Source: an uncultured Chloroflexia bacterium (GTDB lineage Bacteria; Chloroflexota; Limnocylindria; QHBO01). Taken from it: 64,000 nt of DNA. Shown here in pieces: positions 6,464 through 21,770 of the stretch. A program made the position numbers and the translations under genes. The notes under the pieces are model-generated. The model worked only from the letters and a program-made list of their open reading frames with translations. It was not told where the DNA came from and did no database searches. The stretch is taken from the NCBI GenBank assembly GCA_963805645.1, contig CAWDVA010000006.1:192078-256077 (forward strand). The letters are read 5' to 3'. How positions within the stretch are numbered: the stretch's first letter is position 1; each line of letters begins with the position of its first letter.

Positions 6464-6634
6464 GCCCTCCACAGCGGCCTCATGACCCGGCGGTGCGGCT
6501 CGACTTGCCACCTGCGGATCACCGTAGCGTTAGGCGACTCCACGGCTCCGTCCCGTCACCGGGGGCGGCTCTCCTGAGCGTGGGCGGCGCTGCCCACCGA
6601 GCCGATGGTGCACCCCGAAGTCGTCCAACGCTGC

Positions 6635-6720
6635 TGACATGCGCGCCTGACGAGTCGGGAGGGTCCCGGCACCAATCACCGCCGCTAACGCGATTGACAT
6701 CCGCGCCTGAAGAGTCGAGA
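6635..6720. repeat. Two copies of a 26-bp motif, tgacatNcgcgcctgaMgagtcgRga, spaced 60 bp apart
   Basis: The copies are at 6635-6660 and 6695-6720. The second begins with TTGACA and is followed by the 10-bp palindrome cgctcgagcg. Confidence 0.4.
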
Positions 6721-6809
6721 CGCTCGAGCGCCGGGGCGCGCGGCGACCCAACGTGCGCCTCTCGCTCCCGCGCTGACTCGCCCGGCGCCGTCGCCTATGC
6801 TTGCGGGTG

Positions 6810-9800
6810 ATGGCATCCCGCGACACGATCGACTCGAAACCGGTCGCCGGGGACGAGCTCCCCGACGACCTGAACCTGATCAACGCCGGGTATATCGCCC
6901 AGCTCTACGAGGCGTACCGGGCGGATCCGGCGTCCGTTGACCCGGAGTGGCGCACGCGCTTCGACGCCGGGTTCGCCGGCATGGAGCCCCTGGCAGCCGC
7001 ACCGCCGACCACCGACGGGTCCGGCGGCGAAGCGTCTTCGGCAGACGCGGCGCCCCCGGCGGAGCAGGCCCTGCCACCCGGCGCCACCCCCATTCGCGGC
7101 CCCGCGGTTCGGCTGGTGACGAACATGACCGCATCGCTGGGCGTGCCCACCGCCACGAGCTTCCGCGACCTCGAGGTGAGCATCCTGGAAGCGCGCCGGC
7201 GCGAGCTCAACGCCCAGGTCGCGCCGCGCAAGGTGAGCTTCACGCACCTGATCGGCTACGCCATCGTCCGTGCCGCCGCCGAGCAGCGGACCATGACACA
7301 TGCCTTCGCGGAGACGGCCGACGGCCAGCCCCTGCGCATGGACCCCGGGACGCTCAACCTGGGCCTGGCGGTGGACGTGGAGCGGCCGGACGGCGGCCGC
7401 TTCCTGGTGGTCCCCGTCATCAAGGGCGCGGACGACATGGACTTCGCCGCCTTCCATGCCCGCTACGAGGAGCTGGTCGCCGGCGCGCGCACCAACCGCC
7501 TCTCGCCAGACGACTTCGCGGGCGGGACCATCACCCTGACCAACCCGGGGACGCTGGGGACCACGGCGTCGGTCCCACGGCTCATGGCAGGCCAGGGCAC
7601 CATCGTGGCCACCGGCGCCATCCGCTCGCTGGCCGGGTCACGGTTGATGACCATCACCAGCACCTATGACCACCGCATCATCCAGGGCGCGGAGTCCGGC
7701 CTGTTCCTGCGGCGCATCGACGACGCGCTGGCGGGGCGCGACGGCTTCTACGAGGAGGTCTTCGCCGCCATGGGCGCTGCCCTCGGTCCGGCGCCGGCGC
7801 CGGCGCCGGAGTCGCTGACCGCCGCGCCACCGGTTTCTGCCGCCCCGACGCAGCCGGCCCCGGCTCCCGGAGCTGCGGCGGACGACCTGCGCCACATGGC
7901 CGCGGCCATGGCCCTGGTGGGCGCCTATCGCCTCTACGGCCACCTGGGCGCCACGCTGGATCCGCTGGGCGGCGATCCGCCGGGCGATCCGGCCCTCGAT
8001 CCGGCCTTCCATGGCCTGACACCGGAGATCATGGACCGCATCCCCGCCGGACAGCTGGGCGTCCATGTCGGCGGCGAGACGTTGAGCGAGGTGCTGGCCG
8101 CCCTGCGCCGCACGTACACCGGCACCATCGCCTACGAGGTCGAGCATCTCGGCAACCACGCCGAGCGCGCCTGGCTGCGGCGGGTGATCGAGTCCGGCGC
8201 GCATCGAGCCCCGCTGACCGCCGACGAGCAGCGACGCCTGCTCGAGCGCCTGACCGCCGTGGAGGGGCTGGAGCGCTTCCTCCATCGGGCCTACCTGGGC
8301 CAGAAGCGGTTCAGCATCGAGGGCCTGGACGCCATGGTGCCCATGCTCGACCTGATCCTGGAGATGGGGGCCGCGCAGGGAACCCGGCGCGCGGTGATCG
8401 GCATGGCGCATCGCGGCCGCCTCAACGTCCTCGCCCACACGGTGGGGATGAGCTACGACGCGATCCTGGCCGAGTTCGAGGCCGGGCGCCCGGACGAGGC
8501 GGTCATGCCCGACACCGAGGCGGACGACGTCAAGTACCACCTGGGCGCCGACGGCGTCTTTCCCTGCACCGCGGGCGAGGTCGCCGTCTCGGTGATGCCC
8601 AACCCGTCCCACCTCGAAGCGGTGGACCCCGTGGTCGAGGGGCGCGCCCGCGCCGAGCAGACGGACCGCTCGGCCTCACCCGCGAGGGTGGACACGCGCC
8701 GCACCCTGCCGATCCTGATCCACGGCGACGCGGCCTTCGCGGCGCAGGGCGTGGTGGCCGAGTCGTTCAACCTGTCGCGGCTCCCCGGGTATGCCAACGG
8801 CGGGACCGTCCACATCATCGGCAACAACCAGATCGGCTTCACCACCGGCGCCGACGAGGCGCGCTCCACCACCTACTCGTCGGACCTGGCCAAGGGGTTC
8901 GACGTGCCCATCGTCCACGTCAACGCCGACGACCCGGAGGCGTGCCTGGCGGCCGCGCGCCTGGCCATGCTCTACCGCGCCGAGTTCGACGCGGACATGG
9001 TCATCGACCTGGTGGGCTACCGCCGCTACGGCCATAACGAGGGCGACGAGCCGGCCTACAGCCAGCCGATCATGTACGAGAAGATCGCGACGCATCCCAG
9101 CGTGCGCGATCGGTACCTCGAACGCCTGGTCGCCGATGGCATCGTCAACGCGGACCAGGCGGCGGAGGACGCCAAGGCGCTCGCGCGGGCGTTCGCCAAG
9201 CGCCAGGCAGCGGTGCGCAAGCGCGCCACGGAGCCCGCGCTCGACCGCGGGACGGACGCGCTCCCGCGCGATGGCGGTGCAGACCCGGAGACCGCCGTCC
9301 CCGCCGACGTGCTGCGCTCGCTCAACGACCAGCTGCTCAGCTGGCCGGACGGGTTCAGCATCAACACCAAGCTCGAGCGACAGCTGGAGCGGCGACGCGG
9401 CGCGTTCGATGCGGACGAGCCGCGCATCGAGTGGGGGCACGCGGAGTCGCTGGCGCTGGGCTCGCTGCTCCTGGAAGGGACGCCCATCCGCCTCTCGGGG
9501 CAGGACAGCGTGCGCGGCACGTTCTCGCAGCGCCACCAGACCCTGGTCGACACCCAGACCGGCGAGCGCTACACGCCCATCCAGCACCTCGACGGTGCAC
9601 GGGCCAGCTTCGAGCTGCACAACTCCCCCCTGAGCGAGTACGCGGCGCTGGGCTTCGAGTACGGGTACGCCGTCACCGCGCCCGAGGCGCTGGTGCTCTG
9701 GGAGGCACAGTACGGCGACTTCGCCAACGGGGCGGAGATCATCATCGACCAGTTCCTCATTGCCGGGCTGGCCAAGTGGCGCCAGACGTCACGGCTCACG

Positions 9801-10463
9801 CTGCTCCTCCCGCACGGCTACGAGGGGCAGGGGCCGGAGCACTCGTCCGCCCGGCTGGAGCGCTACCTGGCGCTTGGCGCGGAGGGCAACATTCGCGTCG
9901 TCTATCCCACCACCCCGGCCCAGTACTTCCACCTCCTGCGCCGCCAGGGGAGGCACACCGAGCTGCGCCCCCTGCTGGTCATGACGCCCAAGTCGCTCCT
10001 CCGCCTGCCGGCGGCAGCCTCGCGGCTGGGGGACCTGACCGATGGCGCCTTCCACCGGGTCCTCGACGATCCCGAGCACGCCGACGACACGGCGAGGTCC
10101 GCGGTCCGGCGCGTGATCCTGTGCACCGGCAAGCTCTACTACGACCTGATGGGCTCGGAGCACCGGGCCGCGCTGCCCGAGGTCGCCGTGGTCCGTGTCG
10201 AGCAGCTCTATCCCTTCCCCACCGAGACGCTGCGCGCCGTCCTGGCCCGGTACCCGGCGGCCGAGAAGGTGACATGGGCCCAGGAGGAGCCGCGGAACAT
10301 GGGCGCCCGCAAGTTCGTCATGCCCAAGATCCGGCACCTCGTCCCGTTCAAGATCCCGCTGGGCGACGTCAGCCGGCCGGAGCGCTCGCGCCCGGCGGAG
10401 GGGTATCCCGGCGCGCACGCGACGGAGCAGGCCCGCATCGTTCGCGAGGCGTTCGGCGCCTGA
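6810..10463 (+). CDS. kgd: multifunctional 2-oxoglutarate dehydrogenase E1 with fused N-terminal E2 succinyltransferase domain (Kgd/OdhA type)
   Basis: About 1217 aa. An E2 catalytic DHRIIQG(AES)G motif is followed by a long TPP-dependent E1 domain. The N-terminus resembles actinobacterial Kgd. TTG 6801, GTG 6807 and ATG 6810 are all in frame. Confidence 0.9.
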   Translation: MASRDTIDSKPVAGDELPDDLNLINAGYIAQLYEAYRADPASVDPEWRTRFDAGFAGMEPLAAAPPTTDGSGGEASSADAAPPAEQALPPGATPIRGPAVRLVTNMTASLGVPTATSFRDLEVSILEARRRELNAQVAPRKVSFTHLIGYAIVRAAAEQRTMTHAFAETADGQPLRMDPGTLNLGLAVDVERPDGGRFLVVPVIKGADDMDFAAFHARYEELVAGARTNRLSPDDFAGGTITLTNPGTLGTTASVPRLMAGQGTIVATGAIRSLAGSRLMTITSTYDHRIIQGAESGLFLRRIDDALAGRDGFYEEVFAAMGAALGPAPAPAPESLTAAPPVSAAPTQPAPAPGAAADDLRHMAAAMALVGAYRLYGHLGATLDPLGGDPPGDPALDPAFHGLTPEIMDRIPAGQLGVHVGGETLSEVLAALRRTYTGTIAYEVEHLGNHAERAWLRRVIESGAHRAPLTADEQRRLLERLTAVEGLERFLHRAYLGQKRFSIEGLDAMVPMLDLILEMGAAQGTRRAVIGMAHRGRLNVLAHTVGMSYDAILAEFEAGRPDEAVMPDTEADDVKYHLGADGVFPCTAGEVAVSVMPNPSHLEAVDPVVEGRARAEQTDRSASPARVDTRRTLPILIHGDAAFAAQGVVAESFNLSRLPGYANGGTVHIIGNNQIGFTTGADEARSTTYSSDLAKGFDVPIVHVNADDPEACLAAARLAMLYRAEFDADMVIDLVGYRRYGHNEGDEPAYSQPIMYEKIATHPSVRDRYLERLVADGIVNADQAAEDAKALARAFAKRQAAVRKRATEPALDRGTDALPRDGGADPETAVPADVLRSLNDQLLSWPDGFSINTKLERQLERRRGAFDADEPRIEWGHAESLALGSLLLEGTPIRLSGQDSVRGTFSQRHQTLVDTQTGERYTPIQHLDGARASFELHNSPLSEYAALGFEYGYAVTAPEALVLWEAQYGDFANGAEIIIDQFLIAGLAKWRQTSRLTLLLPHGYEGQGPEHSSARLERYLALGAEGNIRVVYPTTPAQYFHLLRRQGRHTELRPLLVMTPKSLLRLPAAASRLGDLTDGAFHRVLDDPEHADDTARSAVRRVILCTGKLYYDLMGSEHRAALPEVAVVRVEQLYPFPTETLRAVLARYPAAEKVTWAQEEPRNMGARKFVMPKIRHLVPFKIPLGDVSRPERSRPAEGYPGAHATEQARIVREAFGA

Positions 10464-10708: not shown

Positions 10709-12280
10709 TCAGTTGACCCGCTTCTCGCGCCCGGTCCAGTACGGCTCGCGCAGCTCCGCCTTCAGGATCTTCCCGGTTCCGCCCTTGGGGAGCGCGTCGC
10801 GGAACTCGATGTCGCGCGGGACCTTGAATCCGGCGAGCTGGGAGCGGACGTGCGCTCCCAGGTCATCGGCGGTGGCAGAGGCGCCTTCCTTGAGCACCAC
10901 GATGGCCACCGCGGCCTCGCCCCACCTGTCGTCCGGCACAGCGACGACGGCGCACTCGAGGACGGCGGCGTGCGAGGCGATGGCGTTCTCGATCTCCACC
11001 GAGCTGATGTTCTCGCCGCCGGAGATGATGATGTCCTTGGAACGGTCCTTGATGACGATATAGCCCCGCTCGTCGATGGTCGCCATGTCGCCGGTGTGGA
11101 ACCAGCCGTTGCGGATCTTCTCCGCGGTCGCTTCGGGATCCCGGTAGTACCCGTCCATCACCAGGTTGGAGCGGACGACGATCTCGCCGATCTGCCCCCC
11201 GGTGGGTGCCACGTCGTTGCCATCGGCGTCCACCACCCGCAGCGCGGTGCCCACCACCGCGTAGCCGGTCATGGCCTTGCGGGCGGCCTCCATCCCGGGA
11301 GCCTCGTGGCTCGTCAGCCAGGCGCGGGGACGTGCGAGGGCGATGACCGGGGTGGTCTCCGAGAGGCCGTAGCCCACGATGGCGTTGCAGCCGAGCTCGC
11401 GCTCGATGGCGTTCACCAGCGTGGGTGAGGCCGGCGCGCCGCCGATCATGGCCTCCTTGAGGCTCGACAGGTTGCGCGTAGCGTGATCGGGGTGGTTCAC
11501 CAGGGCGTTGAAGATGGTCGGCACGCCGAGCAGGTGGGTGACCCCCTCGGCCTCCACCAGGCGCAGCAGCTCGGCCGGGTCGAACTTGCGGAGCATCACG
11601 TGCCGCCCGCCAACGGCCGTCATCCAGTGCGGCGCGCCCCAGCCGTTGACGTGGAAGAGCGGCACCACGTGGAGGATCGTGTCTGCATCGGTGATGCGCA
11701 GCACGATCGCCGTCGAGAGCGCGTGGAGATGCAGGTTCCGATGGGTCAGCATCACGCCCTTCGGCCGCCCGGTGGTGCCCGACGTGTAGAAGAGCTCGGC
11801 CATGGCGTTCTCATCGATCTCCGGCGCCCGGTACTCGGTGGAGGCCTCGGCCAGAAGGGCCTCGTACTCGTCCGCCGGGCCCTCCATGCGCACCCAGCGC
11901 ACCTCGCTGGCGAGTGAGGGACGGAGGGCGGTCACCATCGGCTCGAAGTCGGTGTGGTAGAAGACGACCTTCGACCCCGCGTGACCCAGGATGTAGCCGA
12001 TCTCGGCCGCCGCCAGCCGCACGTTCAGCGGGTTGAGCACCGCGCCCACCTCCAGCACCCCGTAGTAGGCCTCCAAGAGCTGGTGGGTGTTGTAGGTCAT
12101 GAAGCTGACCCGGTCGCCGGGCCGCACCGCCAGACCGCGCAGCGCATTGGCGAGCCGATGGGTTCGCTCCGCGTACTGCGCGTAGGTGAAACGCTTCTCG
12201 CCGTCCACCACGGCCTCGACGTCGCCGAAGTAGGCGGCAGCTCGATCACGAAACTCCAGGACGCTCAACGGGACGCGCAT
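10709..12280 (-). CDS. AMP-dependent acyl-CoA synthetase/ligase (FadD-like)
   Basis: YTSGTTGRPKGV AMP-binding motif, and GYGLSETT and GWFHTGD motifs. Confidence 0.85.
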   Translation of the reverse strand: MRVPLSVLEFRDRAAAYFGDVEAVVDGEKRFTYAQYAERTHRLANALRGLAVRPGDRVSFMTYNTHQLLEAYYGVLEVGAVLNPLNVRLAAAEIGYILGHAGSKVVFYHTDFEPMVTALRPSLASEVRWVRMEGPADEYEALLAEASTEYRAPEIDENAMAELFYTSGTTGRPKGVMLTHRNLHLHALSTAIVLRITDADTILHVVPLFHVNGWGAPHWMTAVGGRHVMLRKFDPAELLRLVEAEGVTHLLGVPTIFNALVNHPDHATRNLSSLKEAMIGGAPASPTLVNAIERELGCNAIVGYGLSETTPVIALARPRAWLTSHEAPGMEAARKAMTGYAVVGTALRVVDADGNDVAPTGGQIGEIVVRSNLVMDGYYRDPEATAEKIRNGWFHTGDMATIDERGYIVIKDRSKDIIISGGENISSVEIENAIASHAAVLECAVVAVPDDRWGEAAVAIVVLKEGASATADDLGAHVRSQLAGFKVPRDIEFRDALPKGGTGKILKAELREPYWTGREKRVN

Positions 12281-12343
12281 GGCTCAGTCGGTCCTCGTGC
12301 TGCAATGGGAGATCAGCATACGGCCGCCCGCCATACTGGCGCC

Positions 12344-13399
12344 ATGCAGGCGACGCCGCTTCTCGAGCGCTACCGCCACCTCCTCGCGCACCCAGACGAC
12401 GAGCCGTTCCCGCTCACCCTGGGCGAGGGAGGCACCCCGCTGATCCGTGCCCGCCGGCTGGGCGAGGCGCTGGGCCTGGATCGCCTGTACCTGAAGTTCG
12501 AGGGAACGAATCCGACCGGGAGCTTCAAGGACCGCGGCATGGTGCTGGCCGTGACCCGGGCGGTGGCGCGCGGCGCACGAGCCGTCGTCTGCGCGTCGAC
12601 CGGGAACACGGCCGCCTCCGCCGCGGCCTACGCGGCCGCGGCGGGGATCCCCGCCTTCGTCCTCCTCCCCGCCGGCAAGGTCGCCCGCGGCAAGCTTGCC
12701 CAGGCGCTGGTGGCAGGGGCGCGGCTGGTGATGATCGACGGGAACTTCGACCAAGCGCTCGAGGCGGTCCGCCGCCTGGGCGAGGAGGGGGTGGCGGCCG
12801 TCGTCAACTCCATCAACCCCGACCGCCTCGAGGGACAGCAGACCGGCGCCTGGGAGATCTGCGACGCCCTGGATGCGGCGCCCGACGCACTGGCCCTCCC
12901 CGTCGGCAATGCGGGGAACATCAGCGCCTACTGGCGCGGCTTCAGCCGGTACGCGGCCGAGGGCCGGACCGCGGGCCGTCCGCGGATGCTTGGATTCCAG
13001 GCGGAGGGCGCCGCGCCGATCGTGCGCGGGGCACCGGTCGCACAGCCGGAGACGGTGGCGACCGCGATCCGCATCGGCAATCCCGCCTCCTGGCAGCTGG
13101 CGGTCGCCGCACGCGACGAGTCCGGCGGGACCATCGCGGCGGTGAGCGACGAGGAGATCGTGGCGGCGCAGCACGACGTCGTGCGCCTGGAGGGGGTCTT
13201 CTGCGAACCCGCCTCGGCGGCGGGCGTGGCCGGGGTGCGGCAGCTGGTCGCGGACGGGCGCCTCCATCGGTCCGACGCGGTCGTCTGCGTGCTCACCGGC
13301 CACGGCCTCAAGGACCCCGACGCGGTGCAGGCGGAGGAGGGCAGCCTGACGCCGGTGCCGGCCGAGCTCGGCGCCATCCGCAAGGCGATGGGCCTCTAG
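12344..13399 (+). CDS. thrC: threonine synthase
   Basis: TGSFKDRG PLP-lysine motif at 352 aa. ATG at 12344 is the plausible start. The track ORF extends spuriously upstream. Confidence 0.85.
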   Translation: MQATPLLERYRHLLAHPDDEPFPLTLGEGGTPLIRARRLGEALGLDRLYLKFEGTNPTGSFKDRGMVLAVTRAVARGARAVVCASTGNTAASAAAYAAAAGIPAFVLLPAGKVARGKLAQALVAGARLVMIDGNFDQALEAVRRLGEEGVAAVVNSINPDRLEGQQTGAWEICDALDAAPDALALPVGNAGNISAYWRGFSRYAAEGRTAGRPRMLGFQAEGAAPIVRGAPVAQPETVATAIRIGNPASWQLAVAARDESGGTIAAVSDEEIVAAQHDVVRLEGVFCEPASAAGVAGVRQLVADGRLHRSDAVVCVLTGHGLKDPDAVQAEEGSLTPVPAELGAIRKAMGL

Positions 13400-13414
13400 C
13401 CGGCCCGGGTCCCG

Positions 13415-15055
13415 TCAGTCGGCCGGAGAAAGGCGACCGGCGATCACGGCCTCCGCGGCGGCCCCGCTCTGCGGGTAGCCGGTCACCACCTCGAGGAACG
13501 GCACCCGCTCGAGCGCCAGGAGCTCCGTCTCGGCGACGGCCACCACAGATGCGGTGCGCGGCACGTCGCGCAGCAGCGCGATCTCCCCGAACCCCTCGCC
13601 CGGACCGAGCTCGCGGACCGGCTCCCCGTCCACGAGGACGCGGACCCGTCCCTCCGCGACGACGTAGTACCGATCCCCCGGCTCGCCCTGGCGGATGATC
13701 TCGGCGCCGGTGTCTGCATGAGCGGGGACCAGGTTGGCTGCCAGCCGCTCGAGCACGAGCGCGGAGAGCGGCGCGAAGATCGGGATGTCGCGGAGCAGGG
13801 TCAGCTCCACGAGGTGGACCTCCGAGGCCATGTCGATCTCCCGGAGGGAGCGGGCCGCGAGGAGGACGGCAACCGGCAGCAGCAGACCGGTGAGCACGAA
13901 GGCGCCATGGGGTCCGAGCGCCGCCACCACGAGGGAGGCTCCCATGGAGCCGGCCGCCAGCGACGCCATGCTGACCCCCTCGAGGACCCCGAAGATCCGG
14001 GCCAGCATGGCGTGCGGTGCGACGCGCTGCAGCAGGGTGCGCCCGGCGACGTCCATCACGCTGCGGCCGGCGCCTGCGACCATCAGGAGCGAGACCGCAA
14101 GGAGCAGGCTCGACGAAACGCCCAGGAAGGCGAGCGGCAGTCCGTAGACCATGGCGCCCAGGCCGTACGGGACGGCGAGCCTCGGACGGCCGATGAGCGT
14201 CACGGTGAGCGCCACTCCCAGCAGTCCGCCCGCGCCGATCACCGCGCCGAGGTAGCCGACGGCGGGATCGTCGAGGGAGAGCAATTCGAGCGCGAGGACC
14301 ACCACGAGGACGTCCATGGCTCCCCACACCACGTCGGAAAGGGCGAAGAGTCCGGCGACCGGGCGGAGCCGTCCGGGCCCGAGCAACGCCCCGAACCCGT
14401 CCACCAGGGCGGCGACGGGACGGCCACGCACGCCGGCCCCCGCGCCGGCGGGCACGGCAGTCCTTCCCACGGCCAGGGCGACCAGCGCGCCGGAGGCGAG
14501 GACGACGGCACCGAAGACGGCGAAGACCGGCGCGATGCCGCCGATGGCCAGGCCCAGCCCGGCGAGACCGGGGCCGACGAGGAGCGACCCGTTCTCGATG
14601 ATCCCGCTCGTGACGTTCGCGGCGGTGAGCTCGGCCGGGGTATCGGCGAGTGCCGGGATGAGGGCCGCCTGGAGCGGACGGGTCAGGGTCATCGCGGCGT
14701 TCGCCAGCGCCGCGAGGGCGTACACCGGAACGACCGGCAGGCCGGCGCCGATGGCGGCCGCGAGCGCGATGATCGACGTGCCCTGGAGCACGTACGCGAG
14801 CACGAGCATCCGGTCCCGGCGGTATCGGTCCCCCAGCACGGCGGCAACCGGCGCCAGGACGGCCGCCGGCGCGAGCTGGACGAGCACGGCGATGCCGACT
14901 CCGGTGGCCCCGCCCACGTTGAAGGCGTAGACCAGCATCCCGATCCACTCGACCCACTCGGCGAGGGCGAATCCCAGGTACGCCGCCTCGATCGCGGCGA
15001 TGCGCCGATTCCGCAGCACCGCGAGGAGCACGCTGAGCGACGCACCGAGCGCCAT
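13415..15055 (-). CDS. MFS transporter fused to C-terminal CAP-type cyclic-nucleotide-binding domain
   Basis: The N-terminal about 400 aa are highly hydrophobic with 12 TM segments. The C-terminus carries GEGFGEIALL...RTASVVA, the cNMP-binding cassette. Confidence 0.8.
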   Translation of the reverse strand: MALGASLSVLLAVLRNRRIAAIEAAYLGFALAEWVEWIGMLVYAFNVGGATGVGIAVLVQLAPAAVLAPVAAVLGDRYRRDRMLVLAYVLQGTSIIALAAAIGAGLPVVPVYALAALANAAMTLTRPLQAALIPALADTPAELTAANVTSGIIENGSLLVGPGLAGLGLAIGGIAPVFAVFGAVVLASGALVALAVGRTAVPAGAGAGVRGRPVAALVDGFGALLGPGRLRPVAGLFALSDVVWGAMDVLVVVLALELLSLDDPAVGYLGAVIGAGGLLGVALTVTLIGRPRLAVPYGLGAMVYGLPLAFLGVSSSLLLAVSLLMVAGAGRSVMDVAGRTLLQRVAPHAMLARIFGVLEGVSMASLAAGSMGASLVVAALGPHGAFVLTGLLLPVAVLLAARSLREIDMASEVHLVELTLLRDIPIFAPLSALVLERLAANLVPAHADTGAEIIRQGEPGDRYYVVAEGRVRVLVDGEPVRELGPGEGFGEIALLRDVPRTASVVAVAETELLALERVPFLEVVTGYPQSGAAAEAVIAGRLSPAD

Positions 15056-15059
15056 GGGC

Positions 15060-16187
15060 TCAGCTCCGTCCGTGTGCGGCGAGGACTTCGATCAGCCGAT
15101 CGTGCGGGAGGGCGTGAGCGGTGATCCCGTCCCTCCCGGTCATGGTGTGGGCGGCGAGCAGCGCGTTGACGATGGCCTCCTCCGTGGCCTCGATGGCCGC
15201 CCAGAAGAGCGGCCCCAGGCGGTCGTCGCGCACGGCCGAGACGTCGTAGGTCGGGCCACTCCCGGGCGCCGCGGTATCCACCGAGGCGTTGCCGGTGGCG
15301 AAGGCGATCACCAGGTCCCCGCTCGAAGGCTCCCCGGCGCCGCCCGCCCGACCGATGCCCAGCGCCGGACGCTGGGCGAGGCGAGTGCACTGGTGGGAAA
15401 GGAGCGGCGCGTCGGTGGCAACCACCACGATGATGGACCCTGCGCCCGGTGGGGCCGATGAGCCGGGCAGGGGCACCACCTCGGGGCCGATCGCCTCGCC
15501 GACCGGCACGCCGGCGACGCTCAGGCGCGAGCGCCGGCCGTAGTTGGCCTGGACCAGGACGCCCACCGTGTAGCCGCCATCGGCCACCGGAATGACGCGC
15601 GACGCGGTGCCGATGCCACCCTTGAAGCCGTGGCAGATCATCCCGGTGCCGCCGCCCACGTTTCCCTCGGGCACGCGGCCGGGCGCGGCCGCCGCCCAGG
15701 CCTCCTCGAGGTGAGCCGCGGTGACGTGGAACCCGTCGATGTCGTTCAGGACGCCGTCCCAGGTCTCGCCCACCACCGGAAGCGACCAGAGCCGTGCGTC
15801 CGCGCCCCGCTCCCGTCGCTCGAGGGCGATGAGCGCATCCCGCACCGTGCCGACCGAATGCGTGTTCGTCAGCGCAACCGGTGACGTCAGCAGGCCTGCC
15901 TCGCGAACCCACTCCAGCCCGGTGAGCTCCCCGTTGCCGTTGAGCCGATGGCATCCGGCGAAGGCGGGCCGTGGCCAAGGTTCTCCGGGTGGCACCACGA
16001 CCGTGACCCCGGTTCGGACCGGACCGGCGCCGACCCGGAGCGGTCCGTCGCCGCGCTCGATGGTGGCGTGCCCGACCCGGACGCCGGCGACGTCGGTGAT
16101 GGCGTTGGCCGGACCGGGGTCGAGCTGGCCGATGCGAACGCCGAGATCGCGCGCCCGGGCGGGCGGGTCCCGGTCAGTCGATGCCAT
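15060..16187 (-). CDS. DmpA/S58-family self-processing L-aminopeptidase-like protein
   Basis: N-terminal GxLxPGPANAITDVAGVRVGH signature and internal GGGTG. Confidence 0.75.
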   Translation of the reverse strand: MASTDRDPPARARDLGVRIGQLDPGPANAITDVAGVRVGHATIERGDGPLRVGAGPVRTGVTVVVPPGEPWPRPAFAGCHRLNGNGELTGLEWVREAGLLTSPVALTNTHSVGTVRDALIALERRERGADARLWSLPVVGETWDGVLNDIDGFHVTAAHLEEAWAAAAPGRVPEGNVGGGTGMICHGFKGGIGTASRVIPVADGGYTVGVLVQANYGRRSRLSVAGVPVGEAIGPEVVPLPGSSAPPGAGSIIVVVATDAPLLSHQCTRLAQRPALGIGRAGGAGEPSSGDLVIAFATGNASVDTAAPGSGPTYDVSAVRDDRLGPLFWAAIEATEEAIVNALLAAHTMTGRDGITAHALPHDRLIEVLAAHGRS

Positions 16188-16635
16188 CGTCGCCGGCGCG
16201 GTTCGTCACCGCGACGCCGGAACCGACGATCAGCACGCTGAATGTCAGCGTGGGCGCGTCCGGCGGCAGGTCGTCCTGTCCCTGGAGCTCGATCGCGAGG
16301 CCCTGGGTCAGGCCGCGACGCACGACCTCCACGCGGCAGCCGGCGGGGAGTCGGATCGCCACGCCGGACATGAGGGTGGTGACCTCCAGGCGGGCGCCCC
16401 CGGGGGCGAGCTGCACCCCGCTCAGGTCCAGGTCGGCGCCCGCGAACCAGGTCGCAAACGTTCCGCCGCGGAACGCGGAGGCGCGGCTGCGGAGGGCGAG
16501 GCTGTCGGCAATGACCACCAGGGCCAGCTCGTCGCTCGTCTCGTCCCCGTGGGAGGGGATCAGGGCCCGCGCCGCCAGGGCCGAGCCGATCAGACCGGTG
16601 AAGATGCCCAGGGCGAAGAGGAGAATCCGGCGCAT
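16174..16635 (-). CDS. small membrane-anchored protein (N-terminal TM, beta-rich C-domain; LiaF-like?)
   Basis: MRRILLFALGIFTGLIGSALAA is a transmembrane anchor. The gene overlaps the downstream start by 14 nt. It sits between a REC gene and a peptidase gene. Confidence 0.5.
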   Translation of the reverse strand: MRRILLFALGIFTGLIGSALAARALIPSHGDETSDELALVVIADSLALRSRASAFRGGTFATWFAGADLDLSGVQLAPGGARLEVTTLMSGVAIRLPAGCRVEVVRRGLTQGLAIELQGQDDLPPDAPTLTFSVLIVGSGVAVTNRAGDDGID

Positions 16636-16639
16636 GGCG

Positions 16640-17038
16640 TCATGCTAGGGCCTTGCACCCGCACGCGGCCAGTGCCGCTGCCACGAACTCCTCCGGTGCC
16701 GACGCCTTTGGCAGGTAGCCGTCCGCGCTGGCCAGCAGGGCGGGGCGCTCGAGCGCATCGGACCAGCCCATCAGGATCACGCTGGCGCCCGGGGCCAGGA
16801 CACGCGCGGCGCCGATCAGGGCCTCGCCGGCATCGATCTCGGGGAGGCGCGGGTCCACGAGCACAAGCGACGGTTGCAGCTCCTCCACGACGGCCAGCGC
16901 CCGGGGAACGTCGCCCGCGGTGACGACGACCGGAACGCCGGCCAGGGCGAGCAGGTCGGCGAGGGACTGTCGAACCCGACGGTCGGCGTCAACGACGACG
17001 ATCCGCAGATCCTGGACGGGGTCTCCTTGATGGGGCAC
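16640..17038 (-). CDS. stand-alone response-regulator receiver (CheY-like) protein
   Basis: IVVVDAD...LVLVDPRLPE...YLPK show the acidic pocket, phospho-Asp and conserved Lys. There is no output domain. Confidence 0.7.
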   Translation of the reverse strand: MPHQGDPVQDLRIVVVDADRRVRQSLADLLALAGVPVVVTAGDVPRALAVVEELQPSLVLVDPRLPEIDAGEALIGAARVLAPGASVILMGWSDALERPALLASADGYLPKASAPEEFVAAALAACGCKALA

Positions 17039-17100
17039 GTGCCCATTCTTCGCCTGGACGCTCGCGCGCGCGTCGGCCGAGTAGCGGTGGCGGCGCTACG

Positions 17101-20100
17101 TCATTCGGCCGAGGACCCGGCCGAGGGCGCCGGCTCGGTCTCGTCAGCGGACTCGGCGGGGATGCGCCAGGTCACGCTCACCGCGGTGCCGTGTCCGGGC
17201 CGGCTGGTGACCGCGAACTCCGCCCCGATCCGCTCCGCCCGCTGGCGCATGCCGACCAGTCCCAGGTGGCCACGCGGCGTGTTGGCGGGGTCGAAGCCGA
17301 TGCCGTCATCGGTCACCGACAGGCGGATCTCGCCGCCGATGCGGGCCAGCAGGATCCGCGCCGACGAGGCGTTCGCGTGCTTGACGACGTTGTGGAGGGC
17401 TTCCTGCCCGATGCGATAGAGGGTCTCCTCCGCCTCGGAGGGCAGGCGCTCGGGGAGCCCCGTGTCGGCCTCCACGGTGACGGAGAGCCCGGTCCTGCCC
17501 TGCACCGCGGCGGCGTGGGTGCGCAGGGCCTGCTCCAGCCCGTCCTGCTCCAGGCTCTTCGGCCGGAGCTCGAAGATGAGCGTGCGCATCTCGGCCAGCG
17601 CGTCCTTCTGGAGGTCCCGCAGCTCCGCCAGCTTCCCGCGGGCGGCGCCCGGGTCCTGGTCCAGCAGCAGCTCGAGCGAGCGCATGGTGAGACCCATGCT
17701 GAAGAGCGCCTGGGTGACGCTGTCATGCAGCTCGCGCGCGAGGTTGCCGCGCTCCTGGGACGCTGCGATCTCCGCCGCCTGGGCGCGCAGGTCCACTTCG
17801 AGGCGCTCGCGGACGCTGATGTCTCGGACCGCGCCGTGCGCGCCGACGACCTTGCCGTCGACGATTTCCGCGATCCCCGTCGTCTCGGCGGGGATGGGAT
17901 GGCCGTCGCGATGCCGCAGATGGAAGCGGATCATGAGGTCCGGCTCGGTGTTGTCCACCATCCGCTGCCACTCCTCGTTCACGCGGTTCCCGCTGTCGGG
18001 GTGGACCAGGATGCGGAAGTGCTTGCCCACCAGCTCCTCGGCCTTCCAGCCGGAGAGGCGCTCGATGGTCTCGGAGAAGTACGTCAGCGTCCCGTCGGCG
18101 CGCGCGGACCAGATCGTGTCCGGCGAGTTCTCAACCAGGTGCCGGTAGCGGCGCTCGCTGCTCTCGACCTGTGCCCACAGCCGCGCGTTGCTGACCGCCA
18201 CCGCGGCCTGGTTGGCCAGGGTTCCCAAAAGCTCCGCGTCGTCCGCGTCCCACGCGTCGGGGCGCTGCGCGTCCATGAGCATGGCGCCCAGCCAGCCGTG
18301 CTCCCCGATCAGCGGCGCCGCCAGCACGGAATGGATGCCCTGGTCCCTCACCCAGGCGTCGGCTTCCGGCGAGTGCCTGAACCCCGGGTCGTTCAGGTAG
18401 TCCCCGGTGACGACCACGCGACCCTCGATCAGGGCCCTTCCGGCGATGCCCTGGTCCGGCTCGTCGAGGTCGGGCGAATCCGGGGGCGGCGCATCGGTCG
18501 GGCGACCGAACGTGTGGGCCAGCCGCAACCCCGGGCCGGGCTCGGTGACGAGGTCCATCTCGCCGCCATCGGCCTTGAGCAGTCGGGCCGCCTCGTCCAC
18601 CGTGCGCTGGAGGATGACCGCCGGATCGCGCATGGCCGTCAGCTGCCGGGCGATCTCCGACAGCGTCTGCTGCGCGTCGACCCGGCGTGCCAGCTCATCG
18701 GTCTGCCGGCGAAGGTCGTTCTCCAGCGTGACCCGCTCGCTGATGTCGCGGGTAGACCCGTGCACGCCCACGAACGCGCCGTCGCGCTCGATCCCGATGG
18801 CGCGCGTCTCGACGGGGACCACGCCACCGCCCTTGCGCATCAGCCCGAAGTCGACGCGTCGCTCGGTCGAAGGGTCCGAGACGATCGCCGCCCACTCCGC
18901 GCCGATCGCGTCGAGCGACTCGGGAGCGATGATGCTCATGAACGGCCTGCCGACCAGCTTGTCCGGCTCCCAGCCCGCGATGGCGGCGATGGCGTCGGAG
19001 ACGAAGGTGAAGGCGCCGTCGGCGTCGATCTCGTAGATGATGTCCGGCGCCTGCTCCACCAGGAACCGATAGCGGCGCTCCGACTCGTGGATCTGCTCCA
19101 CCAGGGTCGCGTTCGACAGGGCGATGGCACCCTGGTCTGCGAGGCGCTGGAGAAGGTCCAGCTGCTCCGGGTCGATCGAGCACGGCTTGCGGTACGAGAC
19201 CGCCAGGGTGCCGAGAATCTCGCCGCCGGGCGCGCGAAGCGGCGCGACCGCCATGCCGCGCAGGCCCATCCGCTCCGCGGTGTGCTGGTCGTCGGCCTCG
19301 TGGGGGATGCGCGGGTCGACCATGTAGTCCTCGGTCCACACCGCCCTGCCCAGCGACGCCGCGAGACCGTTCATCCCGCCGGCCACCGGGAAGGCCTGCG
19401 ACGCCAGCCAGCGCCGCGTGCGGGCGTCCGTCCCGCCAGCGATGACCCGTGGCCGCAGGAACGCGCCGGAGCCGTCGGGCACGGTCAGGTGCGCGCCGTC
19501 GGAGGCGAGGAGGCGATGCGCGGCGTCCACCACCTCCTGCAGAACCTCGGCCGGGTGACGCAGGGCGGTGATCCGGGCCGCGATCTCGCCAAGCGTGCGC
19601 TGGGCCTCGACCCGCCGCGCCAGCTCGTCCGCGCGCCGCCGCAGGTCCTCCTGCAGCCGCTCGTTGGCAAGCGTCACGGCGGCGTGGTTGGCGAGCGCCC
19701 TCAGGAGCCCGAGCTGCGCCGGATCGAAGGTGTGCGCCCGTCCGATGAAGACTCCCAGCGCCCCGAGGGACTCCCCGTCGGCGACGAGCGGCGCAACGGC
19801 CATGGCCCGCATCCCGGCGGTCTCCACGATCTGGTCCGCCACGTCGGAATGGGTGAATCCCGCGTCGTTGGGGTAGTCCTCGGTGGTGACCAGCTCCGCG
19901 CGGGCGAACGCGGTGCCGAACATGCCGACGCCCACAGGGAGAGTCAGCCCGTGGATCAGGCGACGGGCGGTGCGGTTGCGGATCCCCGCATCCCGCGCGA
20001 ACCGCAGCACGTTCGCATCCGCGTCGTACAGGTAGATCATCGCGCCGTCCGCCTGGAGCAGGCGCGCAGCTTCCTCGGCGGCGCCCTTCAGCACCGCGGA

Positions 20101-20151
20101 GACGCTCGCTGCGTGATCGGTTGGTCTGAAGCGGCGGCTCGGCTCGCCCAT
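17101..20151 (-). CDS. cytoplasmic multi-sensor histidine kinase: GAF-GAF-PAS-GAF-PAS-HisKA_3-HATPase_c
   Basis: 1016 aa with no TM segment. A C-terminal HDSVTQALFSMGL H-box (NarX/LiaS type) and an ATPase region with GLVGMRQRAERIGAEF. GAF/PAS spacing is seen around the ERRYRFLVE and ERRYRHLVE PAS linkers. Confidence 0.85.
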   Translation of the reverse strand: MGEPSRRFRPTDHAASVSAVLKGAAEEAARLLQADGAMIYLYDADANVLRFARDAGIRNRTARRLIHGLTLPVGVGMFGTAFARAELVTTEDYPNDAGFTHSDVADQIVETAGMRAMAVAPLVADGESLGALGVFIGRAHTFDPAQLGLLRALANHAAVTLANERLQEDLRRRADELARRVEAQRTLGEIAARITALRHPAEVLQEVVDAAHRLLASDGAHLTVPDGSGAFLRPRVIAGGTDARTRRWLASQAFPVAGGMNGLAASLGRAVWTEDYMVDPRIPHEADDQHTAERMGLRGMAVAPLRAPGGEILGTLAVSYRKPCSIDPEQLDLLQRLADQGAIALSNATLVEQIHESERRYRFLVEQAPDIIYEIDADGAFTFVSDAIAAIAGWEPDKLVGRPFMSIIAPESLDAIGAEWAAIVSDPSTERRVDFGLMRKGGGVVPVETRAIGIERDGAFVGVHGSTRDISERVTLENDLRRQTDELARRVDAQQTLSEIARQLTAMRDPAVILQRTVDEAARLLKADGGEMDLVTEPGPGLRLAHTFGRPTDAPPPDSPDLDEPDQGIAGRALIEGRVVVTGDYLNDPGFRHSPEADAWVRDQGIHSVLAAPLIGEHGWLGAMLMDAQRPDAWDADDAELLGTLANQAAVAVSNARLWAQVESSERRYRHLVENSPDTIWSARADGTLTYFSETIERLSGWKAEELVGKHFRILVHPDSGNRVNEEWQRMVDNTEPDLMIRFHLRHRDGHPIPAETTGIAEIVDGKVVGAHGAVRDISVRERLEVDLRAQAAEIAASQERGNLARELHDSVTQALFSMGLTMRSLELLLDQDPGAARGKLAELRDLQKDALAEMRTLIFELRPKSLEQDGLEQALRTHAAAVQGRTGLSVTVEADTGLPERLPSEAEETLYRIGQEALHNVVKHANASSARILLARIGGEIRLSVTDDGIGFDPANTPRGHLGLVGMRQRAERIGAEFAVTSRPGHGTAVSVTWRIPAESADETEPAPSAGSSAE

Positions 20152-20162
20152 GGGTGCTCGCC

Positions 20163-21413
20163 TCAGGTCGCCATTCCGTGCTCGACGGCCCAGAGTGCCG
20201 CCTGGGTGCGGCTGGCCAGCGCCAGCTTCCCGAGGATGTTGCTCACGTGGGTCCGGGCCGTTCGTTCGGTGATCCCCAGGGCGTGGGCGATCTCCTTGTT
20301 GCTCGAGCCCCTGGCCAGGTGCGCGAGAACTTCCTTCTCCCGGTCGGTGAGCGGCTCAACCGGCTGCTCCGTCTTGCGGGCGCGCAGGCGCTGCGCCAGC
20401 ATCCGCGCCACGGCCGCGTCCAGGTGCACCTCGCCGGCGTGGGCCGCGCGGATCGCGTTGGCGACCTCGTCCGCATCGGCGTCCTTGAGCAGGTACCCCG
20501 ACGCGCCGGCTTCCAGCGCCGATGTCACCTTCTGCTCCTCGATGAAGCTCGTGACGGCCACGATCTCGACGCCCGGCCGCGACTCCTTGATCTTGCCGAT
20601 GGCGGTGATGCCGTCCATCTTCGGCATGAGCAGGTCCATCAGGATGACGTCCGGCTGCAGCCGGTCCGCCAGCGCGACCGCCTCCTCGCCGTCCTCCGCC
20701 TCCCCCACCACCTCGATGTCGCGGAGCAGCTCCAGGAACCCCTTCAACCCCCGCCGGACGACCGCGTGGTCGTCGACCAGCATGACCCGGATCGGGCCTT
20801 CGTCGCTCACGTCCTCCATCTCCCTCGGCGCGTACGCGGTGCTCATGGGCAGGTCGGGCGCGGGAAGCACCGCATGTGCAGTATGCAGGAGCTGGTAGAC
20901 GTGCACCGGTTCGGTGATGTCGCGAAGCCGGTGGGTGCCCAGGTCCCGTGGCCGGAGCTCGTCCGGCAGCCGGCCGGCGGCCACGGCCAGCACGGCCTCG
21001 CTGATGAGCGTCTCGCCCCCATGCGCCAGGCTGAGGATGCGCGCGGCGCGGAAGAGCGGCGGGCCAAAGAACCGGTCGCCACGACGCTGCGCATCGCCCG
21101 TGTCGAGCGCGGCGCGCACGCGCAGGTGCCCCACATCCCCCCAATCGGCCTCGAGCAGGTCGCGCGCGAGCTCGATGGCGGCCATCACGGCTTCCGCGCC
21201 ATCGTCGAAGGCGGCGTAGGCCGCATCACCGACACGCTCGAAGACTCGGCCGCCGTGGCGTTCCACGGCTTCGGCGACGTACGCCTGGTGGCGCGCGAGG
21301 ACCTCGGCTGCCCGCTCCGGGAAGCGCTCCGAGATGCGCGTGCTTCCTTCGACATCGGTGAACAGGAAGGTGATGGGCGTTGGGCGTTGGGCGGTTTCCA
21401 CGGCAGGGAGCAT
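20163..21413 (-). CDS. response regulator with N-terminal class III nucleotidyl-cyclase homology domain, receiver and LuxR/NarL HTH (CHD-REC-HTH)
   Basis: FLFTDVEGST, ERVGDAAYAAF and GPPLFRAARIL...ITEPVHVYQL make up the CHD. IRVMLVDDHAVVRRGL and ILMDLLMP form the REC. LTDREKEVL...LGITERTARTHVSNILGKL is the LuxR HTH. ATG at 21413 (MLPAVE). The track ORF carries an implausible Arg-rich 146-aa extension. Confidence 0.75.
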   Translation of the reverse strand: MLPAVETAQRPTPITFLFTDVEGSTRISERFPERAAEVLARHQAYVAEAVERHGGRVFERVGDAAYAAFDDGAEAVMAAIELARDLLEADWGDVGHLRVRAALDTGDAQRRGDRFFGPPLFRAARILSLAHGGETLISEAVLAVAAGRLPDELRPRDLGTHRLRDITEPVHVYQLLHTAHAVLPAPDLPMSTAYAPREMEDVSDEGPIRVMLVDDHAVVRRGLKGFLELLRDIEVVGEAEDGEEAVALADRLQPDVILMDLLMPKMDGITAIGKIKESRPGVEIVAVTSFIEEQKVTSALEAGASGYLLKDADADEVANAIRAAHAGEVHLDAAVARMLAQRLRARKTEQPVEPLTDREKEVLAHLARGSSNKEIAHALGITERTARTHVSNILGKLALASRTQAALWAVEHGMAT

Positions 21414-21566
21414 ACCGTCGGACCCCCGGGGCCTGTCCCCGGCCGAATGACGTAGACGGGCATGGGCGAAAGAGCCGGGCCGCGTTCGGGACCCATGGCC
21501 GACGCGCCGGAGACCACGGCAGGCGACCATGGCGCCATCAACAGCACCGAGACGGAGGACGAACCG

Positions 21567-21770
21567 ATGTACGCGACAGCACGCATTGCCGACGCGCTCA
21601 TCACCCCGCCGATTCCCTCGCCACAGCCCCGGTACGTCGCCCGGGCCGACGACGAGGAGCCGCCGGTCCGCTCGACCACGAGCGTCCGGCAGGTCCGGCG
21701 GACGATCGAGGGCGCGGCGGCGGCCGCGTGGCTCGCCTTCGTGCCGAGGATGCGCAACAACCCGCGCTGA
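21567..21770 (+). CDS. small hypothetical protein (67 aa)
   Basis: A GGAGGA Shine-Dalgarno sequence lies 7 nt before ATG 21567. The ORF sits in the divergent intergenic region between the signalling operon and tag. Weak support. Confidence 0.25.
   Translation: MYATARIADALITPPIPSPQPRYVARADDEEPPVRSTTSVRQVRRTIEGAAAAAWLAFVPRMRNNPR

Follow-up and report, generated by a model that had tools for sequence, protein, structure and literature searches.

In the window (the whole stretch of 64,000 nt that was analysed, from an uncultured Chloroflexia bacterium), a run of closely spaced minus-strand genes ends with one encoding a 12-helix transporter of the major facilitator superfamily (MFS) fused to an intact cyclic-nucleotide-binding (CNB) sensor domain, here called MFS-CNB. 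The fusion is real; the finding amounts to the correct annotation of domains in an architecture already catalogued and does not constitute a new kind of protein or system. We think it moderately probable that MFS-CNB is a DHA3/MFS_3-like proton-coupled secondary transporter whose activity is gated by cyclic-nucleotide (cNMP) binding. Homologue clustering places it in a distinct and very large soil-bacterial family of ~550-aa MFS-CNB proteins. The gene and its parts are as follows:

13415..15055, minus strand: MFS-CNB gene, 546 aa, ATG start, last gene of the run
13826..15007, minus strand: 12-TM MFS core, aa ~17–410 (Pfam, AlphaFold2 model, hydropathy, Foldseek)
13430..13813, minus strand: cytoplasmic CNB domain, aa ~415–542 (Pfam, PDB alignment, AlphaFold2 model)
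13541..13591, minus strand: phosphate-binding cassette FGEIALLRDVPRTASVV, aa 489–505 (family alignment)

A 12-helix MFS core joined to a cyclic-nucleotide sensor

Frame statistics gave the ORF a coding-type composition (GC3 0.91, GC2 0.50) and spoke against two overlapping ORFs, 13308..14957 (minus strand) and 13718..15124 (plus strand), which were set aside as shadow ORFs. The ATG of the gene lies 4 nt past the stop codon of an S58 aminopeptidase gene and has a GGAG ∼8 nt upstream, the ribosome-binding site being located within the 3′ end of the S58 gene. The fusion of an MFS protein to a C-terminal cNMP-binding domain, first proposed from the sequence alone, was confirmed by two Pfam matches above the curated cut-offs (MFS_1: aa 30–324, 55.3 bits, E 6.4e-15, cut-off 33.4; cNMP_binding, PF00027: aa 448–524, 67.6 bits, E 9.5e-19, cut-off 27.5). 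Both domains occur in each of the 120 close homologues listed, and among the 150 top cluster representatives >140 have the full length of ∼550 aa, which excludes chance; a gene-fusion or assembly artefact was likewise ruled out by this recurrence of architecture and length. MFS_1 was matched by 32/32 aligned relatives. Overall, the family comprises about 1,500 clusters at 50% identity (∼1,549 at E ≤1e-30), and at least 569 species genomes, the majority of them MAGs of Chloroflexota and Actinomycetota, encode a relative.

The AlphaFold2 model (pLDDT 84.2, pTM 0.78) contains, in order, 12 TM helices, two short helices, an 8-strand beta-roll and two C-terminal helices, in agreement with the full 12-TM core that had been read from the sequence. 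The same reading had placed a spacer of ∼60 aa between the two domains, which the model does not bear out: the end of TM12 lies near residue 410 and the CNB domain begins with a helix at 415, only 5 residues on, so the ∼45 residues ahead of the beta-roll are the CNB domain's own N-terminal helical part. These helices are followed by the beta-roll (443–516), alphaB (517–525) and a short alphaC (528–542), the chain ending ∼20 aa after the beta-roll. Among the top 50 structural matches listed by Foldseek, no single solved chain spanned both the MFS and the CNB domain.

The core has the features of an MFS member, namely two six-helix bundles, a cytoplasmic central loop and motif A, which is represented by a GDRYRRDR sequence between TM2 and TM3 with G75, D76 and R80 invariant in the family alignment. 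Over 264 sequences, Arg126 (LTRP) in TM4 and the intramembrane acidic residues E33, E142, E154, D248 and E359 are conserved as well; together with motif A, we count their retention in favour of a core that is probably transport-competent. Foldseek aligned the core with VAChT and VMAT (TMt 0.80–0.84) and further with LmrP and MFSD10, all four of which are proton antiporters. The closest named MFS families were TIGR00900 (DHA3), EntS, Mef(B) and the ryptide exporter, every one of them at a sub-threshold score; the 87.3 bits obtained for TIGR00900, against a cut-off of 319.6, leave the protein outside DHA3 proper. MFS_3 (PF05977) was reported for 18/32 family members, with MFS-CNB itself not reported at E ≤0.001.

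For the C-terminal region, the sequence-only reading had made its assignment depend on a match to a CNB profile and on the conserved phosphate-binding Arg and Glu. Both were found, as PF00027 scored well above its cut-off and Glu491 and Arg500 are intact. The domain contains a canonical phosphate-binding cassette (FGEIALLRDVPRTAS), and the beta-roll motif that had been quoted is present as GEGFGEIALLRDVPRTASVVAVA, which aligns residue for residue with the CNB cassettes of PKG and PKA. Within the cassette (FGEIALLRDVPRTA), E491 and R500 occur together in 262/264 family sequences; Gly490 and Glu491 are present in all 264, Arg500 in 262, Thr501 in 247 and Ala493 and Leu494 in 260–261, a pattern that we count in favour of a ligand site under selection. 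PKG I CNB-B (4ku8_C) superimposed on the domain with an rmsd of 1.7 Å at 34% identity (Foldseek). Profile searches for an HTH or winged-helix DNA-binding domain gave no match, which sets the protein apart from CRP/FNR regulators, and the CRP equivalog profile scored 18.4 bits against a cut-off of 266. On these comparisons, the sensor resembles PKG/PKA-type CNB domains more than it does CRP/CAP regulators. The earlier label of a CAP-family cNMP-binding domain holds for the fold and the profile but not for the closer affiliation.

The operon and its conserved aminopeptidase

As had been recognized from the sequence, MFS-CNB is the terminal gene of an operon that includes a GAF/PAS histidine kinase. 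The other members of the run are:

20163..21413, minus strand: NarL/LuxR-type response regulator with an N-terminal class III cyclase-homology domain (profile and homologue searches)
∼20877–21386, minus strand: the class III cyclase-homology domain, N-terminal in this regulator
17101..20151, minus strand: cytoplasmic sensor histidine kinase, 1016 aa, GAF-GAF-PAS-GAF-PAS-HisKA_3-HATPase_c
16640..17038, minus strand: single-domain response-regulator receiver (REC), 132 aa, Response_reg 43.7 bits
16174..16635, minus strand: 153-aa protein with an N-terminal TM helix, 14-nt overlap with the S58 start
15060..16187, minus strand: DmpA-type S58 Ntn-hydrolase aminopeptidase, 375 aa (Pfam and PDB matches)

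The order is thus cyclase-homology domain-REC-LuxR regulator, GAF/PAS kinase, REC, 153-aa membrane protein, DmpA-type S58 aminopeptidase and MFS-CNB, with intergenic gaps of 11, 62, 4, −14 and 4 nt. Although the mechanical ORF of the regulator reaches 21851, homologues favour the ATG at 21413. The description of a cyclase-domain and GAF-kinase operon was right about these two components but incomplete, having missed the three genes that separate the transporter from the kinase, including that of the S58 aminopeptidase. The 153-aa protein, which gave no match in Pfam, NCBIfam or PDB, is kept in loci L001, L003, L006 and L012. A promoter and terminator scan of 13000–22200 returned nothing useful.

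The identity of the aminopeptidase is clear from its Peptidase_S58 score (384 bits, Pfam) and its PDB matches (5tzb, E 2.7e-112; DmpA 1b65, E 2e-89). Its G/S self-processing site is conserved (AG-SIIVVVATDAPL), GSI(I/V)V...ATDAPL is shared with 5tzb, and the protein has no signal peptide. The gene adjoins that of MFS-CNB in 11/13 distinct syntenic loci, lying upstream in some of them and, in others, downstream with an overlap; it is missing from the other 2 and from most of a wider set of 80 loci. As judged from gene order, the conserved partner of MFS-CNB is this aminopeptidase and not a cyclase, since the adjacency persists where the order is swapped. The two-component system is missing in 5/13 syntenic loci, and the cyclase domain in most of the 13. 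Furthermore, the surrounding block is also syntenic for the housekeeping genes Tag, GHMP kinase, PALP and Kgd, so part of the neighbourhood conservation may reflect inherited gene order and not functional coupling. A GAF-only gene lies directly upstream of the family member in 24 of the 80 loci.

The cyclase domain that had been assigned to the first gene of the run was supported by homologues (M. avium Ma1120, E 3e-17; trypanosomal, Rv1900c, CyaC and Rv1264 cyclases down to 2e-4) and was borderline in Pfam (21.2–22.2 bits against a cut-off of 21.9, the 22.2 being obtained on the isolated N-terminus). Its six catalytic positions read D, E, D, R, F, R. The two metal-binding Asp residues are retained, as is the Arg of the transition-state pair, in which Phe stands in for Asn. 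The substrate-specifying pair is non-canonical, with Glu, the guanylyl cyclase residue, at the Lys position and Arg at the Asp position. In one study, Ma1120 was active with Ala in place of the transition-state Asn (PMC4215837). The domain is limited to the closest relatives (the window, L001 and L006), orthologous regulators elsewhere being without it. Domain-specific tblastn placed cyclase-homology genes, with mixed substrate residues, within 8 kb of the family member in 17/80 loci, at best a modest enrichment given how abundant such genes are in these phyla. The same searches exposed as single-linkage artefacts a first neighbour clustering that had given 18 loci with an Rv3239c-type protein and 18 with a cyclase-AAA-TPR protein; strict patatin adjacency was left in only 2 loci, and the case for a cyclase linkage is weaker after this correction. 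We found no consistent pattern of guanylyl cyclase-like residues in the neighbouring cyclases of other lineages.

Proposed gating, substrate and ligand

In the mechanism that we favour, a cNMP would bind the phosphate-binding cassette via Glu491 and Arg500, and binding would reposition the N-terminal helices and the C-terminal lid of the CNB domain. These elements are predicted to lie directly beneath TM12 on the cytoplasmic face, attached through a few residues, so that their movement could shift the inward/outward equilibrium of the MFS core and so turn transport on or off in a matter of seconds, without recourse to transcription. MFS-CNB would be translationally coupled to the cytoplasmic DmpA-type aminopeptidase and would stand under the GAF/PAS kinase-LuxR regulator system, the regulator of which carries the cyclase-homology domain. 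This setting could impose two layers of control, expression through the two-component system and activity through the cNMP, on a single peptide- or amine-related transport step. The substrate itself may be peptide- or amine-like.

We favour export as the direction of transport, a guess from the distant, sub-threshold likeness to exporter families; the cytoplasmic aminopeptidase would fit an importer equally well. In such a scheme, which we consider rather unlikely, the core would take up D-alanyl, glycyl or beta-amino-acid peptides or amides for cleavage by the DmpA-type enzyme, the cNMP acting as a starvation signal that opens uptake. It would account for the most conserved neighbour being a leaderless peptidase whose gene overlaps or abuts that of the transporter, and for the leaderless S8 subtilases found near family members in a second lineage, but it sits poorly with the closest named MFS families, all of which are exporters or antiporters, with the lack of similarity to POT/PTR and AmpG peptide importers and with the loci from which S58 is missing.

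Much less probable is a CNB fold without cyclic-nucleotide sensing, serving as a structural or dimerisation module or sensing a different ligand, as some CRP/FNR-family effector domains do. Such a role would suit the short alphaC lid, with the C-terminus close behind the beta-roll, and the lack of a dedicated canonical cyclase conserved adjacent to the gene. Degenerate CNB domains, however, typically lose the cassette Glu and Arg, and here the cassette is essentially invariant in 264 diverse sequences, including these ribose- and phosphate-contacting residues.

Within the favoured reading of a cNMP-gated transporter, the family may be one of bacterial cGMP-gated secondary transporters, although we regard this as improbable. 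Arg481 in beta5 of the sensor aligns with PfPKG R473 and human PKG R297, and Thr501 in the cassette with PKG T317; the pair is present in 176/264 family members. Both residues make PKG CNB domains cGMP-selective; we take them to be the two sites mutated in work on PKG selectivity, of which T317 is named there. Combined with the Glu in place of the ATP-specifying Lys in the operon's cyclase domain, Arg481 and Thr501 make cGMP a live possibility, and the operon could then be a self-contained cGMP circuit, with two-component input to a guanylyl cyclase-like domain and from there to a cGMP-gated MFS transporter. To our knowledge, cGMP signalling is essentially undescribed in the phyla of this family.

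Post-translational switching of bacterial secondary transporters is poorly understood, and the family offers an entry point, being compact (546 aa), very widespread in soil Chloroflexota and Actinomycetota, near-invariant at the ligand site and confidently modelled. Cyclic-nucleotide gating of an MFS carrier, if true, would constitute a new class of bacterial second-messenger effector, and cGMP as the ligand, if true, would extend bacterial cGMP signalling. The operon supplies candidates in the DmpA aminopeptidase, the cyclase-homology regulator and the GAF kinase.

Relation to known transporters and sensors

The protein had been called Rv3239c-like. We take Rv3239c and Rv3728 of M. tuberculosis to be proteins of ∼1,050 aa that combine an MFS core, a cNMP-binding domain and a patatin/NTE esterase, an architecture presumably shared by a 1056-aa MFS-cNMP-patatin protein of locus L085 (4813–7983; patatin 104.8 bits, Pfam), which we used as a stand-in for Rv3239c itself. 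The literature lists Rv3239c as an MFS pump whose substrate is unknown (PMC6300501) and Rv3728 as a membrane esterase/efflux protein (PMC10865251). The order of an MFS core and then a CNB domain is common to both types, and in this loose sense the analogy stands. It does not extend to orthology: the Rv3239c type is about twice as long, Pfam finds no patatin in MFS-CNB, and the BLASTP comparison that had been suggested, run on the stand-in, aligned only the CNB domains (33% identity over 97 aa), the MFS cores being unalignable. That MFS-CNB is an orthologue or truncated form of the Rv3239c/Rv3728 type, a reading encouraged by the shared domain pair and by a three-domain-type protein adjoining the family member in L074 and L085, is refuted at the level tested. 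The two types lie side by side in one genome and so are distinct families, and the length of 546 aa is kept over hundreds of clusters, which rules out a truncation. As far as these alignments go, the two kinds of fusion look independent.

MFS transporters with a C-terminal CNBD, the architecture of MFS-CNB, were catalogued by Willson et al. 2019, as cited in PMC10710835 and PMC8154325. The former, a review, places CNBD-MFS fusions among recruited domains with possible regulatory functions and says of various bacterial MFS fusions that they still await characterisation. The literature searched yielded no experimental study of an MFS-CNBD fusion, only the mention in this review.

For the membrane part, the best sequence neighbours are the DHA3/MFS_3 exporters (TIGR00900, PF05977), such as the Mef macrolide pumps and the enterobactin exporter EntS. 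These share 12 TM helices, motif A, the TM4 arginine and the TM5 GP motif with the MFS core, but they are without a CNB domain and MFS-CNB scores far below their family cut-offs. For the sensor, the best sequence and structure matches are the cGMP-selective domains PKG CNB-B and PfPKG CNB-D (E 1.7e-34 over the whole chain), which likewise have the canonical cassette, the beta5 Arg and the Thr of the phosphate-binding cassette. The last two contact guanine in PKG-type CNB domains (PMC8931422, PMC3765617). Unlike in PKG, the output of MFS-CNB is a transporter and not a kinase, the alphaC lid is short, and the capping-triad Arg of PfPKG is replaced by Ile492.

The CNBDs of the K+ channels MloK1 and SthK also match the sensor (E 1e-13 to 1e-9). 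In these channels and in the sperm Na+/H+ exchanger SLC9C1, the CNBD gates transport. Their membrane modules, a tetrameric channel or an NHE fold with a voltage sensor, are unlike the MFS core; what they have in common with MFS-CNB is a cytoplasmic C-terminal CNBD joined to the last membrane helix.

Domain architecture, predicted structure and family

At the 70–75% G+C of the window, long spurious ORFs are common, and three overlapping ORFs lie at 13.3–15.1 kb. Coding-type composition was found in 13415..15055 (−) alone (GC3 0.91, GC2 0.50). Its 546-aa product contains two Pfam domains, both above their curated cut-offs:

aa 30–324: MFS_1 domain (55.3 bits)
aa 448–524: cNMP_binding domain (67.6 bits, E = 9.5e-19)

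These matches bear out the fusion of an MFS core to a C-terminal cyclic-nucleotide-binding (CNB) domain that a sequence-only reading had proposed, including the expected C-terminal profile match. The beta-roll motif quoted in that reading was likewise found in the product, where each of its positions aligned with those of the phosphate-binding cassettes in PKG and PKA regulatory domains.

An AlphaFold2 model built from 32 homologues (mean pLDDT 84.2, pTM 0.78) contained twelve TM helices, in line with the proposed full 12-TM core, and its central loop included a cytoplasmic helix. TM12 ended at about residue 410, followed from residue 415 by the CNB domain:

from 415: two short helices
443–516: beta-roll
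517–525: alphaB
528–542: short alphaC

The "about 60 aa" previously noted ahead of the beta-roll are therefore no spacer; they are the helical N-terminal section that belongs to the CNB domain itself. Judged from the model, the true linker is only a few residues long, which implies tight mechanical coupling of the CNB domain to TM12. Both termini, and hence the sensor, were placed in the cytoplasm on the basis of hydropathy and of where the Arg-rich loops fall. When compared with the PDB using Foldseek, the membrane part matched the proton-antiport MFS proteins VAChT and VMAT1/2 (TMt 0.80–0.84), LmrP, MFSD10 and ferroportin, and the sensor part matched PKG I CNB-B (4ku8_C; 34% identity, 1.7 Å); none of the 50 matches listed was a structure spanning both domains.

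A word-indexed search returned 3,378 proteins at E ≤ 1e-10, and all 120 homologues listed carried both domains (458–605 aa, nearly all ∼550 aa). An exhaustive search of 50%-identity representatives gave 1,549 clusters at E ≤ 1e-30, and over 140 of the 150 top-scoring representatives were full-length matches of ∼550 aa. Scanning one genome per species revealed a relative in at least 569 genomes, the best 80 of which were all MAGs, from Chloroflexota (Limnocylindria, labelled 'Chloroflexia' by NCBI) and Actinomycetota (Gaiellales, Thermoleophilia, Actinomycetes). Among the matches listed, the closest relative came from an uncultured Chloroflexia MAG (70% identity).

Residue conservation over 264 aligned family sequences
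Gly490, Glu491 (cassette): 264 each
Arg500 (cassette): 262
Ala493, Leu494 (cassette): 260, 261
Thr501 (cassette): 247
Asp76, Arg80 (motif A): 254, 239
Arg126 (TM4): 251
Glu33, Glu142, Glu154, Asp248, Glu359 (intramembrane): 198–250

The cassette Glu and Arg whose conservation the first reading had singled out for checking, Glu491 and Arg500, were thus retained almost throughout. Conservation of the cassette, motif A, TM4 and intramembrane residues makes both protein halves look functional. The nearest named families to the MFS core were DHA3 (TIGR00900), EntS, Mef(B) and the ryptide exporter, all far below cut-offs; Pfam MFS_3 matched 18 of 32 relatives.

The operon and its candidate nucleotide signal

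The MFS-CNB gene is the last of six close-packed genes, with gaps of 11, 62, 4, −14 and 4 nt in order of transcription:

20163..21413 (−): gene 1, regulator with cyclase-homology domain, REC and GerE (mechanical ORF over-extended to 21851)
17101..20151 (−): gene 2, cytoplasmic kinase, GAF-GAF-PAS-GAF-PAS-HisKA_3-HATPase
16640..17038 (−): gene 3, stand-alone REC
16174..16635 (−): gene 4, 153-aa protein with an N-terminal TM helix, overlapping the S58 start by 14 nt
15060..16187 (−): gene 5, DmpA-type S58 aminopeptidase (PDB 5tzb, E = 2.7e-112)
13415..15055 (−): gene 6, MFS-CNB

The "cyclase-domain and GAF-kinase operon" described earlier is therefore real and contains both of these genes, but that description omitted three others (REC, the 153-aa protein and S58). 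The processing site is intact in the aminopeptidase, which lacks a signal peptide. The MFS-CNB ATG lies 4 nt past the S58 stop, with a GGAG within the S58 3′ end. Downstream, a convergent PALP gene stops 15 nt beyond the MFS-CNB stop, and no terminator-like hairpin was detected. As listed, the ORF of this PLP-dependent enzyme (11954–13399, +) is over-extended at its 5′ end (481 aa versus ∼351 aa in homologues) and overlaps the opposite-strand AMP-binding gene at 10709–12280 (−). The 153-aa protein gave no family match in Pfam, NCBIfam or the PDB; it is kept in four related loci (L001, L003, L006 and L012).

The cyclase-homology domain (∼20877–21386) precedes REC and HTH in a NarL/LuxR-type response regulator, an unusual domain order. 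Its Pfam score was borderline (21.2–22.2 bits against a cut-off of 21.9), and phmmer against the PDB gave a clear match to Ma1120, a class III cyclase of M. avium, at E = 3e-17, together with several other class III cyclases. Transferred through the Ma1120 alignment (residue numbers from PMC4215837), the catalytic positions read D, E, D, R, F and R (metal 1, substrate 1, metal 2, substrate 2, transition-state 1 and transition-state 2). Both metal-binding Asp residues and the transition-state Arg are retained. The place of the ATP-specifying Lys is taken by Glu, a feature shared with guanylyl cyclases, and Arg occupies the second substrate position, a pairing with no known precedent. Phe stands in place of the transition-state Asn; Ma1120 is active with Ala at this position (PMC4215837). 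Identical catalytic residues in two related loci, L001 and L006, show that the domain is under selection, and its absence from the orthologous regulators of L009, L011, L015 and L030 marks it as a recent addition to the operon rather than a constant partner of the transporter. The 85%-identical relative L001 (4380–7954) has its GAF/PAS kinase split over three called ORFs of 601, 284 and 286 aa and a regulator without the HTH; frameshifts in this MAG, or errors in its assembly, are the probable cause.

In both sequence and structure, the sensor was matched best by PKG domains. Aligned by HMMER to domain D of Plasmodium PKG, Arg481 falls opposite the beta5 Arg (R473 in PfPKG, R297 in human PKG), and Thr501 aligned with the cassette Thr (T317 in PKG I-beta); we take these to be the two mutated PKG sites, only T317 being named in the source abstract. 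Of the 264 family sequences, 180 have Arg481 and 176 have both Arg481 and Thr501. Taken with the Glu of the cyclase domain encoded in the operon, this pair leaves room for a cGMP reading, but we consider cGMP an unlikely ligand: cAMP is the common bacterial messenger, Ser/Thr after the cassette Arg occurs in cAMP binders too, and neighbouring cyclases of other lineages mostly carry Lys.

Conservation of the neighbourhood

The syntenic set comprises 13 distinct loci including the window, with transporters 48–88% identical. All 13 share one block of Tag, GHMP kinase, operon, PALP and Kgd, in most cases with an AMP-ligase gene between PALP and Kgd. The Kgd-type gene of the window (6801–10463, +) encodes a fused E2-E1 2-oxoglutarate dehydrogenase of 1220 aa, an arrangement typical of Actinomycetota, and stands in a block syntenic with MAGs labelled Chloroflexota. 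The AMP-ligase and Kgd genes of L006 are separated by an inserted IS21-like pair (rve integrase and IstB; 15872–17703).

Eight of the syntenic loci have the two-component system and five lack it. S58 adjoins the transporter in 11 of the 13, lying upstream in the window, L001, L003, L007 and L012, and downstream and overlapping in L009, L011, L013, L014, L015 and L030. That the two genes stay adjacent when their order changes is the strongest sign of functional coupling in this analysis, although the block-wide synteny calls for caution. In the more distant relatives (40–47% identity), these neighbours were all absent.

Gaiellales-type loci showed a second conserved arrangement: ECF sigma factor, 84-aa protein, FTCD_C-like protein, leaderless S8 subtilase, GAF-only protein, a ∼400-nt gap and MFS-CNB. 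This ECF-to-GAF cluster was seen upstream of the transporter gene within L042–L090, from Gaiellales/Thermoleophilia MAGs (e.g. L086:4467–7561); its 84-aa protein has a weak Frankia_peptide/NHase_alpha-like match, and the FTCD_C-like protein is 193 aa long. Across 80 loci, a GAF gene was found in 24 and an S8 gene in 17. A peptidase and a GAF protein thus recur beside the transporter through unrelated genes, S58 and GAF kinase in one lineage and S8 and GAF-only in the other, which is suggestive as two independent observations only. Cyclase-homology genes lie within 8 kb of the transporter in 17 of the 80 loci, which is weak evidence of linkage.

Proposed mechanism and relation to known fusions

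The best-supported reading is a proton-coupled, cNMP-gated MFS transporter, probably an exporter, co-expressed with a DmpA aminopeptidase. The gene, its domains, topology, conservation and gene order are established here, whereas ligand binding, gating, direction and substrate are inferred. On this reading, cNMP binding to the cytoplasmic CNB domain, fixed to TM12, would gate the transport cycle allosterically. The substrate may be a peptide- or amine-like metabolite, and co-expression with the aminopeptidase would be under the GAF/PAS two-component system.

The protein had also been called Rv3239c-like. As a stand-in for Rv3239c we used a 1056-aa protein (L085:4813–7983) with MFS_1, cNMP_binding and Patatin domains, which we take to be the architecture of Rv3239c and Rv3728. 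In BLASTP against the window protein, only the CNB domain aligned (33% over 97 aa), so that the likeness did not hold for this proxy. The ∼550-aa MFS-CNB proteins and the MFS-CNB-patatin proteins would thus be separate families, able to coexist in one genome, and the two fusions look independent in origin. The L085 protein directly adjoins a ∼550-aa family member, and a similar three-domain protein stands beside the MFS-CNB gene in L074 (∼4438–7400; 1046–1056 aa over both loci), placing two different putative cNMP-sensor transporters side by side.

In the literature searched, Rv3239c is described only as an MFS pump of unknown substrate (PMC6300501), and the entry for Rv3728 is a hypothetical esterase/efflux protein of the membrane (PMC10865251). 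MFS-CNBD fusions were already noted by Willson et al. 2019, as cited in PMC10710835, and no experimental study of any such fusion was found in the literature searched. The window protein therefore belongs to a known, uncharacterised kind; its annotation is sound, its operon provides useful context, and the cGMP reading can be tested.
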